In this document: positions 4,754-52,750 of the stretch, one piece after another | How positions within the stretch are numbered: the stretch's first letter is position 1 | Layout of the letters: each line of letters begins with the position of its first letter | Source of the DNA: Octopus vulgaris | Taxonomy: Eukaryota | NCBI GenBank assembly: GCA_951406725.2 | Contig: OX597814.1 | Location: 54,746,001-54,810,000 of the forward strand | DNA length: 64,000 nt | Direction: 5' to 3' | Made by a program: the position numbers and the translations under genes | Notes under the pieces: generated by a model | Databases searched by the model: none | What the model was told of the DNA's origin: nothing | The model's input: the letters and a program-made list of their open reading frames with translations, nothing else

Positions 4754-4809
<56 letters not shown>

Positions 4810-5742
4810 ACACACACACACAAACATCGGTTGTCAGATTTAGGTTATCTTGTTATTTCCTGTTCCTGGATTCCAACAGTATAGTATTCAAAGTATAAGC
4901 TAACATACTAATTGTCAGTACAAGATGGAACACATTGACTGTAAATGCTTCTGTCATCTTATATTATGTCACAGTAAACCCGAAACTTTCGTGAGTGTGC
5001 CTATCAAGTTATTAGTCTGAAAATACTTAAATTTTTGAAGAATAATTTTACATCTTTGGTCATACTAATTGCTTCATGTATGTAAGCTTGATCCATGGAT
5101 GCTCTTCGAAGCTTAGTGGTTAGTCGATGTCATCGGTGCAATACTCAAAAGCTATCTTAATTTTATCTCCTCGTCTCCATGCTTTCATTTTAGCAGTATC
5201 ACTATTGAGGTGAACACTTTTGCTGACGATTAATTATTCTCAGGGTGCAATATCTATTGCTTGGATGTCATCTAACGTCAAATTGTGCAGTCTATATGTT
5301 AGTTGGAATACAGGTACATCAAATATGTTTTTGTATGCATAAAACTCTGAGGATCATATATTATAATTCTCTGGGCATGCTTTACCTGTTGCAAGTTTCA
5401 TCATACTGTGCCACATGCAGCACTAATAACTATAGAATTTTTCGTTAGTTACAGAGAGAAATCAGAGAAATAGTGAGGCTATTAACAGATATGTTGCAAG
5501 AGAGATTTGTAGTTTTAGTTCGTTTTATAATCATCTACGGAACATTTATCTTAGTTACATTTCTTCCTTATATCATTATAGAAAATATTGTAAACGGATC
5601 AAAATTTTCGAAATGCCATCCATAATTTTGGCATATACTTTTAGGTTACCCACAAAGAAACTATGCTTCATGTTGGTGTTTCTCTTTTTAGACTTCTGAA
5701 CAAAAACGATAAAGAGTTCACTGCAAATACAAACAATATCGC

Positions 5743-50386: not shown

Positions 50387-51439
50387 TGTGTGAGGAGTTT
50401 TAAAGAAAGTTTAATATAGATAATTAATAAATATTAACATAAAGATATTCAAGTTTAAATTTTTCAAGATGTGTACCTGATGTTCTAAATATTTTTAAAC
50501 ATGTACCAGTTTGTTTTGTATGTGTTTGTGAATATTTATTTCATTCGTGTATAGGCTTTTTCGTCTGACAGTACGTATATGTATTTTGCATTAAGCTATT
50601 TATTTATATGAAAATAATTTGTTTAACATGTAAACTGAAGTATAAATTGTTTACCTTTTCTGGAGAGATGTAATTTATATGTACTAATTCATACGTACTT
50701 CCACAAAACTTAGCGACAGCGATTGGCATAACTATACATATTATAATGAAATATGAGATTTAAAACATAAGAAACTATTTAACCTTAGCGTCCCTTGAAC
50801 TGAATTCAAACAAATATTTACATTATTTTCTCCATCCCAGTACCAACTGATTTCAGACACTGGTAAAAAATCGGAGGGTTAAGCGATGTCCTGGTAAAGT
50901 ATCTTCATAAAAATTTTCTTGCTGCAGGAACCATCGAATGAAAGCCTTTGGAGCCCAGAGACAGACATAGTGGAACGCAATGGACCGATGTGAAGAACAG
51001 CACACGACAGACTAGACACTAAGTACATCTTTACATCTTATATATGAATGGAATTATGATAGAAATTATAGCCAACACTGATTTGTTACGACGTTTCGTA
51101 CCCGAGTACGCCTAATGTAAACAACAATGAGATCGAAGATGAAAAATGGGTAGTCTTTGGAGGTAACCTTAAATTAGTTATTTGATAGCATTGCTAACAC
51201 AGTAGAACACAGTTTTGACTTATAATAGAAGAGTATTTCGTTTAGTGTCTAGCAGTTTTAGCTACAAAGTAATTTAGTATTGATGAAAGCACCAGCAAAA
51301 TACCGGCAATATCTTCTTGTATCTAAAGAGGAAATATTTTGGTGCAATAGTAAACTATAGTAACTTATCAACAAATCTCTTTGACATTATTTACATTATT
51401 TATATTTGACGGATATTTGGCCTCATCCTGTTTGTTGTT

Positions 51440-51485
51440 AACACAACGTTTCGGCTGATATACCCTCCAGCCTTCATCAGGTGTC
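51440..51485 (-). ncRNA. Minimal type I hammerhead ribozyme
   Basis: GACAC-CUGAUGA-a-GGCUG gaggguauau CAGCC-GAAA-CG-UU-GUGUU. Confidence 0.88.
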
Positions 51486-51555
51486 TTGGGGAAATTTCGA
51501 ACCTGGATTCTCATTCCTAAGGTATTCTTCGATTATTATTATTATTATTATTATT

Positions 51556-52108
51556 GAGTGAGAGAGCAGTGCATGCCATCAAAGTGACACTGGGGTAAAA
51601 TATACGAAGCCCAATATACCCATCATGACTACCCGTCTGATAAAGGTACACCAGGCACATGCATCACAACCATATGTGCGCGACATGGTGATCTCATATC
51701 AAGATAAACAGCACATGACCTTGCAGGTGGGGCCCAGTTAGAATTTTCTTCAGGTTGAGTAGCCCATCCCGCTCAAAAGGTCCCTGAATAAGGGTTGTTT
51801 AAGGATGTTGAAAGAACCACCCATGTTTCCAGAGGTGAATTATTCAAACCCAAAGAATCCCTCTCAACACATGGCTATGATGCTCCCCCACTACTTCTGC
51901 TCGTGATCAGAGATGCACATATCGTCAGCCACTAAGGGACATGCTCAACTGGTTAAGGTCAAACAACTGACAAGCAAATCTGTGGTATTGAGCAGAATAT
52001 TTGCTGTAGCCCATCTTTTATACCAAGACAAAACAATGTACATGATAACACTTCCAATCAGTTAAGATCAGAAGCCATGAGAGCCACTGCCTGGTACTGC
52101 ATCAGGGC

Positions 52109-52110
<2 letters not shown>
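51556..52110 (-). mobile_element. ~555-bp non-coding insertion within (TAA)n; candidate R4/Dong-dependent element
   Basis: Bounded on both sides by pure (TTA)n, with no ORF; Dong elements are known to target TAA repeats. Confidence 0.55.
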
Positions 52111-52175
<65 letters not shown>

Positions 52176-52384
52176 GTTCAGGTCACTGCTTGGAATCGAA
52201 CTCAGAATCTTGGGGTTATTAGCCCGCGCTCTTAACCACTACGCTATATGCCCGTCACCATCTCCTTTCGCACGGTCATTCTACAAGTGGTGACCCCTAC
52301 GTGATTTTGCTTTTATTGTAAGGCGACCGTGCGGCGTTTAACGGAGTCATTCATTCGTCACCATCTTCTTGCGTACGGTCGTTC

Positions 52385-52750
52385 TACATATCCTTCAGAC
52401 TTCCTTAACATGAATGACAATGGGTTTATAGAAAGTATAAACAACATCACAGAGAGGCTGTCTCTTTGGAATATGTCTTTGCGATACTGTTTTCTATCAG
52501 TAATAATACAGTTACTCTTGTGTTTTATTTCAAGATGGTGGCCCACGATGAATTGAGGTCAGCTATGACTTTGATTATGCTCACTGGAACTTTAGCAAGT
52601 GAAAGGTATCTAGCATCCATGAGTGGGGAACAGAGTCAAAGGTTTTCTTGTAGTCTAGCCACATTGAAACTAGGTTCCTCCTATGCTCTCACACGTCTGA
52701 CATCACAGTTTTGTTGATTAACAGTTGTTCGGCACACCCCCAGACCCCCT
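52385..52750 (-). mobile_element. R4/Dong-like LINE RT fragment
   Basis: GCAEQLLIN..WLDYKKTFDSVPHSW..IFQRDSLSVMLFILSINPLSFML..GY. Confidence 0.8.

Follow-up and report, generated by a model that had tools for sequence, protein, structure and literature searches.

A Penelope pseudo-LTR with a tRNA-derived head that probably works as a Penelope-driven SINE in Octopus vulgaris

The minus strand of a 64,000-nt stretch of the Octopus vulgaris genome (assembly GCA_951406725.2, contig OX597814.1, positions 54,746,001 to 54,810,000; hereafter, the window) carries a repeat in which a tRNA-like head precedes a hammerhead motif, raising the question of whether these parts belong together and what moves such a unit. 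The preliminary description of this DNA proposed a SINE headed by tRNA-Ile that had taken a Penelope pseudo-LTR (pLTR) as its tail and was mobilized by Penelope machinery, with self-cleavage defining the end of its RNA. All of the parts that it listed, namely the head with its A and B boxes and AAT loop, the (AAT)n linker, the hammerhead, and the 9-nt repeats, are found at their minus-strand places (Table 1), and with a 555-nt insert removed, the tRNA-like head, (AAT)n, minimal hammerhead, and 9-nt repeats join into one unit of ~315 nt. The window copy is without a 33-nt tail that other copies carry, and in a check of this copy for a target-site duplication, the longest word common to its two 30-nt flanks is 5 nt and lies away from the junctions. 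Abutting the head, the stretch from 52253 to 52388 contains a 33-nt direct repeat (88% alike, 103 nt apart) and an 18-nt inverted repeat, and is probably an older repeat that was hit by the insertion of the unit.

Table 1. Positions within the window of the parts of the repeat, with the evidence or remarks for each
Feature	Position	Strand	Basis or remark
tRNA-derived head, start of the pLTR	52180..52253	minus	sequence, host-tRNA alignment, position after ORF end
A box of head	52246-52236	minus	
B box of head	52201-52192	minus	
Head loop	52220-52218	minus	AAT in window copy, ACT in most copies
(AAT)n linker, 5' portion	52111..52179 ((AAT)n 52175-52111)	minus	length highly variable among copies
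~555-nt young non-coding repeat, separate from unit	51556..52110	minus	29 other copies
(AAT)n linker, 3' portion	51533..51555	minus	
pLTR body, 5' end of Penelope ORF	51384..51532	minus	ORF translation, homolog P0003
ATG of body ORF	51514-51512	minus	frame open through hammerhead and 9-nt repeats
Minimal type I hammerhead motif	51440..51485	minus	layout as in the accessible part of PMC4209133
Hammerhead stem I	51485-51481 paired with 51444-51440	minus	
Hammerhead core, then 1 extra base, 6-bp stem II, GAAA	core from 51480; GAAA from 51452	minus	
Palindromic C-G, triplet GUU, U17	U17 at 51445	minus	
Predicted hammerhead cut	between 51445 and 51444	minus	
Two 9-nt repeats, in frame, three codons each	51384-51401	minus	common 3' end of copies

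We searched the genome (2.8 Gb, 227 contigs, microsatellite-rich), scored the best 40 candidates for the body and for the head, and fetched 30 loci for each; the linkage counts leave out the window's own locus, giving 29 head-anchored and 29 body-anchored loci, and loci L249-L278 are excluded from all counts. A body lies downstream in 25 of the 29 head-anchored loci, and a head lies upstream in 16 of the 29 body-anchored loci, supporting the co-occurrence of head and body as one linked family, beyond chance juxtaposition. In a random sample of 600 kb, drawn at 60 round-number positions, there were 17 body matches, 10 of them already truncated within the body, and 8 head matches, which extrapolates to ~79,000 bodies (95% range 46,000-127,000) and ~37,000 heads in the genome. 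The 1.1-kb 3' part of the ORF introduced below had no match in this sample, placing an upper bound of ~17,000 copies on it, and the ORF 5' part had two short ones; short copies far outnumber ORF-bearing ones.

The 555-nt segment within the linker was considered as part of a composite SINE and rejected, being a separate, younger repeat of (AAT)n tracts: its 29 other copies (L062-L090) are 97-99% identical with fixed ends, and none of them lies between a linked head and body. AAT follows the copy in 29/29 cases and AAT-rich DNA precedes it in 25/29, often with several copies per tract; no tRNA head was seen in these copies, and the longest open frame is 59 codons. LINEs of the Dong/R4 type target (TAA)n, and a LINE with this target probably moves the repeat as its non-autonomous client. 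Dong-R4 is described as recently active in the accessible part of PMC13282606.

Aligned with eight host tRNA types, the head of the window copy scored 66, above all 300 dinucleotide shuffles (mean 27, top 45), and its A and B boxes are well preserved among copies. ARAGORN made no tRNA call in the window, and Rfam called neither a tRNA nor a hammerhead there, nor are any listed for three other copies or for L342, a distant element discussed below. The attribution of the head to tRNA-Ile was not supported by comparison of the copies. An ACT loop is present in 41 of 54 heads, against 6 with AAT, and host Ile, Thr, and Arg tRNAs fit the head about equally, at 45-49 of 74 bases. Within the part of the host tRNA set that was compared, the window head scored 66 with Ile and 65 with Arg(tct), and a copy with an ACT loop (L053) scored 63 with Thr(agt), 59 with Arg, and 57 with Ile(aat). 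Because the ACT loop prevails and host Thr, Arg, and Ile tRNAs fit alike, the isotype is not assignable, and an origin from tRNA-Ile is unsupported. Separately, a loose motif search for host tRNA-Ile(AAT)-type sequences gave ~28 matches clustered at G000:C4:51.99-52.04 Mb (L316-L339), and ARAGORN calls tRNA-Tyr genes in the host tRNA loci fetched.

The identity of the unit emerged from its neighbors elsewhere in the genome. At one locus (L032), the remains of a reverse transcriptase (RT) and endonuclease lie directly before a head (33%-identity RT match). With this stretch as the query, we obtained 30 ORF-anchored loci, in 26 of which the head begins within 120 nt past the ORF end; the body is likewise present in 26, and the other four show deletions, duplication, or insertion there. 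With the 5' part of the ORF as the query, body or tail runs straight into the ORF in 23 of 30 loci, 5 with the head upstream (the counts of 26/30 and 23/30 include the query locus). The layout of the autonomous element is [head-(AAT)n-body-tail]-ORF-[~36 nt-head-(AAT)n-body]. Since the head follows the ORF end and the body or tail leads into its beginning, the entire unit, with its head, is almost certainly the pLTR of a Penelope/Poseidon-type element encoding an RT and a GIY-YIG endonuclease. Poseidon is the clade that we presume from known motifs and from the hammerhead type. The proposal that the body is a Penelope pLTR is thus borne out by the Penelope-type ORF that the unit flanks on both sides, and that of a SINE with such a pLTR as its tail stands as to the pLTR; as the head also lies within the autonomous element's own pLTR, the acquisition of a tail becomes only one possible history.

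The coding content of the loci is in line with this layout. The longest open frame among the 30 ORF-anchored loci (L186) spans 569 aa and ends at the stop before the head; its RT matches Pfam RVT_1 with an E value of 2.7e-6, just under the cut-off, and homologs with 37-69% identity carry RT domains. Pfam made no GIY-YIG call in this frame, where the domain was read by eye from C-terminal motifs, and among the 120 homologs listed, 3 carry PF01541. The loci examined contained no intact full-length ORF of the partner family. The body itself corresponds to the first ~43 codons of the Penelope ORF: the frame that opens with the ATG at 51514 crosses the hammerhead, both 9-nt repeats, and then the tail before it enters the ORF, and the window peptide matches the N-terminus of homolog P0003 with 55% identity over 33 aa (E 1e-6 in a comparison with 120 proteins). 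One natural copy (L307) is open for 150 codons from the body ATG, and 7 of 8 translated copies have stops or frameshifts. What had been described as a 9-nt tandem tail is in fact an in-frame three-codon repeat of the ORF start rather than a LINE-type tail, and the unit's 3' part is this ORF start, not a sequence shared with a LINE 3' tail. Seven loci (L282, L284, L287, L295, L303, L304, and L306) are internally deleted, consisting of a pLTR, ~370-480 nt of the ORF start, and the body again. A young Penelope family of the same genome, with a 781-aa ORF, was considered as the partner and rejected, as 30 GIY-YIG loci and 8 longer loci showed no similarity to body, head, or tail; its RT is ~33% identical to that of the partner. 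This young family (L121-L128; L095, L100, L104, L107, L110, and L117) has intact ORFs, identity of up to 99% between copies, and a pLTR of ~500 nt with a hammerhead-like motif of variant core UUGAUAA and palindromic stem III.

The insertions bear the marks of Penelope machinery. In 33 of the 58 anchored loci, part of the element is found inverted on the upstream side, and in none of them on the downstream side (Fisher p 3.5e-13; upstream distances up to 300 nt for head anchors or 600 nt for body anchors, downstream up to 600 nt), and neighboring short copies are arranged head-to-head. The 33-nt 3' tail is optional, occurring in 11 of 29 body-anchored copies by BLAST and in 14 of 29 with a local aligner. 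Inverted copies and an optional 3' extension are given as features of Penelope-like elements (PLEs) in the accessible parts of PMC8557442 and PMC3846280, and mobilization by Penelope machinery, as had been proposed, is supported by both findings. At the 5' junctions, the central two bases of the head-start palindrome are found either way round (AC 10, GT 4, others 6 of 20), a pattern that copying of the end through a hairpin, or annealing of two cDNAs, would produce.

We then considered what the hammerhead contributes. Its layout, with a 5-bp stem I, one base after the core, a 6-bp stem II, and a palindromic C-G replacing loop III, is that of the minimal PLE motif in the accessible text of PMC4209133, and by this layout the window hammerhead is predicted to be active only as a dimer. 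Eleven distinct motifs with the same layout and other stem II sequences lie beside related Penelope ORFs in metagenome contigs, with stem I pairing of 0 to 7. Single-strand folding of the hammerhead region was no better than that of shuffles (z -0.99), and the minimum-energy cofold of two copies gave another duplex instead of the active fold. The core, reported as intact, is so in the window, but across the family it is intact in 62 of 133 copies, and its divergence of 3.4% is near the background of 4.5%, as expected of neutral decay after insertion. Apart from CpG changes, a single substitution is common in the hammerhead, and it falls on N7, a free position (T 84, A 44 of 133).

The suggestion that self-cleavage defines the RNA end was contradicted by the copies themselves. 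The predicted cut coincides with the end of only 1 of 80 body alignments, compared with 44 that end at body position 150 or 152. The main 3' end lies ~61 nt beyond the cut and that of tailed copies ~33 nt further (~94 nt), and because copies end at these distances, self-cleavage does not set the end. Four contig runs (coded organisms A-D) contain the unit, three of them with contigs across the tail-ORF junction, and their contigs show loose ends at the same two 3' places; that these runs represent RNA is a guess. For the Poseidon element of anole, the accessible portion of PMC11167929 describes RT starting at two sites inside the ORF, with the tail as the interval between them, and by analogy the end of the 9-nt repeats is likely the first of two reverse-transcription start sites.

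These ends also bear on the idea that hammerhead cleavage of multimeric transcripts, with or without circularization, cuts out the unit and sets its ends. Such a mode is described for SINE-like repeats of Schistosoma in the accessible part of PMC6765202 and proposed for retrozymes in that of bioRxiv 10.64898/2026.07.22.740005, and the intact core of the window copy would suit it. However, besides ending away from the cut, the copies lie head-to-head, with no head-to-tail arrays of short units in the 58 anchored loci, and hammerhead mutants of the anole element still insert, cleavage being dispensable in vitro (PMC11167929, accessible portion). We therefore regard this mode as very improbable for the octopus unit.

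The 5' ends are as uniform as the 3' ends. In 25 of 29 head-anchored copies, the 5' end falls within -15 to +2 of the head start (7 at -7), and the remaining 4 extend further upstream, in a set that is biased towards whole heads. Among the 16 body-anchored copies that reach the head (including L007, added by hand), 12 start at the head start, 4 start inside the head, and none continues into the ORF, a pile-up with p ~2e-11 under a model of constant fall-off. In two pLTRs (L292 and L307), the first T4 lies 660-770 nt past the A box, beyond both end points. Judged from these sequence features, the pile-up likely reflects Pol III transcription, and we give a reading of the head by Pol III somewhat better than even odds.

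A promoter may, however, not be needed for the pile-up, because an imperfect hairpin (-9.6 kcal/mol) lies where the autonomous element's head begins, and pLTRs are known to have palindromes at their 5' ends, which the accessible part of PMC3846280 reads as self-priming sites. The short copies could instead be 5'-truncated or fold-back products of long Penelope transcripts, with RT halting at this hairpin and the head as a passenger, so that the unit would not be a SINE in function. Heavy 5' truncation of PLEs and their pLTR palindromes, known from the accessible parts of PMC8557442 and PMC3846280, are in keeping with this, as are the many copies whose ends fall within the body or linker. Moreover, short copies resemble ORF-linked ones in variants and age: divergence is 5.8% for short bodies (n=43) and 6.1% for ORF-linked ones (n=20), with the same variants in both, and this comparison revealed neither a SINE-only lineage nor an older SINE-only layer. 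N7 is A in 24 of 43 short copies and in 5 of 24 ORF-linked ones, the short set being biased by the query. On the other hand, the passage of 0/16 copies beyond the head would be a strong block for so modest a hairpin, the A and B boxes are well kept, and two full 5' pLTRs have no T4 run within the unit. Given both sides, we consider truncation rather unlikely as the source of the short copies.

The order of events could also have been the reverse, with a free tRNA SINE taking a Penelope pLTR as its 3' end and the chimera later displacing the old pLTR behind the ORF through template switching. In the autonomous element, the imperfect palindrome ahead of the head resembles the relic fold-back of a once-free 5' end, and related Poseidons elsewhere are mostly without A/B boxes before the hammerhead, but no headless sister family of this pLTR was found among the 30 ORF-3'-anchored loci, and an older SINE-only layer is likewise missing from the comparison above. 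We find this history improbable. The survey of relatives covered 79 metagenome loci with related ORFs, in which 18 hammerhead-like motifs were scanned upstream for A/B boxes; these were found only at the two pLTRs of one element (2/18 motifs, against a background of 3/1756 windows). This element (L342), a distant Poseidon type in a metagenome contig with a 901-codon open frame and 38% amino-acid identity, has its tRNA-like segment at 1981-2066 and 4772-4857, ~80 nt past the stop and 158 nt before the hammerhead. The segment scored 48.5 with host tRNAs, above 300/300 shuffles (top 45). It was spotted by eye before the A/B-box pattern was written, and serves as a lead only; Rfam made no call in this element, and ARAGORN at lowered thresholds gave only noise.

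Weighing these readings, we favor, with a probability of roughly 60%, a solo Penelope/Poseidon pLTR with a tRNA head that spreads as a short Pol III transcript copied in trans by the RT-endonuclease of its partner. The A and B boxes would start the transcript a few bases before the head, and it would meet no T4 stop until past both end points. The Poseidon protein would bind this short RNA and start reverse transcription internally at two sites, yielding copies with or without the tail. Inverted pairs would arise if both nicked strands prime synthesis and the two cDNAs join through the head-start palindrome, or by fold-back there. The single hammerhead of the short RNA would stay uncut, because cleavage would separate the promoter from the sites where RT starts; its activity would be confined to the dimer, in RNAs that contain two pLTRs. 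The 555-nt insert would have entered the linker of the window copy later.

Set beside known repeats, the unit resembles tRNA SINEs (SINE2) in having an A/B-box tRNA head and in being short, non-coding as inserted, non-autonomous, and of high copy number, with a 5' end fixed at the head (25/29), but its 3' part is the ORF start of its partner rather than a LINE 3' UTR, and the partner itself carries the head. The octopus SINEs OK, OR1, and OR2 are likewise tRNA-derived octopus repeats, reportedly described by Ohshima and Okada in 1994, with the tRNA of OK left unassigned and a copy number for OK of ~8.5e4. As this number is near our body estimate, we presume that the unit may already be catalogued as OK SINE; we know of no hammerhead or Penelope link for OK, OR1, or OR2.

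With anole Poseidon PAc and the PLEs with minimal hammerheads, as far as the accessible text of PMC11167929 and PMC4209133 describes them, the partner shares an RT plus C-terminal GIY-YIG-type ORF and a pLTR overlapping the ORF start, and with Penelope/Poseidon pLTRs in such text, the minimal hammerhead with an extra base after the core and palindromic C-G, the optional 30-40-nt tail, and the inverted 5' copies. In contrast with the Poseidon pLTRs described there, the octopus pLTR starts with a tRNA-derived A/B-box head and (AAT)n linker, its ATG is ~35 nt upstream of the core instead of at stem II, and short head-started copies dominate the family. In Sm-alpha and Sj-alpha of Schistosoma, too, a Pol III-type promoter stands ahead of a hammerhead within a short repeat of high copy number; the accessible part of PMC6765202 presents these repeats as tandem and as released by cleavage, and names no Penelope partner, whereas the octopus unit is dispersed or head-to-head, ends away from the cut, and runs on unbroken into a Penelope ORF. 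In the sections accessible, other non-autonomous elements that derive from pLTRs and are thought to use PLE machinery include the animal non-LTR retrozymes (bioRxiv 10.64898/2026.07.22.740005) and, in Chlamys, elements like MRC1 (PMC8557442), but retrozymes are defined there as tandem arrays with no tRNA head mentioned, and the unit differs on both counts.

A tRNA head on a Penelope pLTR was not found in the literature searched, a search with Repbase, Dfam, and most subscription papers outside it, and the link goes unmentioned in the accessible text of PMC13282606 and its supplement, PMC8967140, PMC4758252, PMC6962438, PMC5786205, PMC8969392, and PMC10886601. The link between head and Penelope thus looks new, while the sequence family itself is possibly catalogued already.

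SINEs are described as needing LINE machinery in the accessible part of PMC5786205, and the present data name a concrete partner of another kind for a SINE-like family of tens of thousands of copies, continuous with a Penelope element and bearing its insertion marks. The unit is almost certainly a Penelope pLTR that begins with a tRNA-derived head, and it likely functions as a SINE driven by Penelope. We would put even odds on the broader proposition that Penelope built a tRNA-derived Pol III promoter into its pLTR, making each pLTR a ready-made SINE and giving rise to a Penelope-driven family of ~1e5 copies through internal-initiation RT instead of a LINE tail. What promotes pLTR transcription, and what the hammerhead is for, become testable questions. 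Copies of this kind would fall into both the SINE and the Penelope bins in the annotation of octopus-type genomes. Finally, the unit offers a possible origin for tRNA-plus-hammerhead repeats, and the tRNA-like A/B segment at the same place in L342 may point to a recurrent strategy and to a route to hammerhead SINEs such as Sm-alpha.
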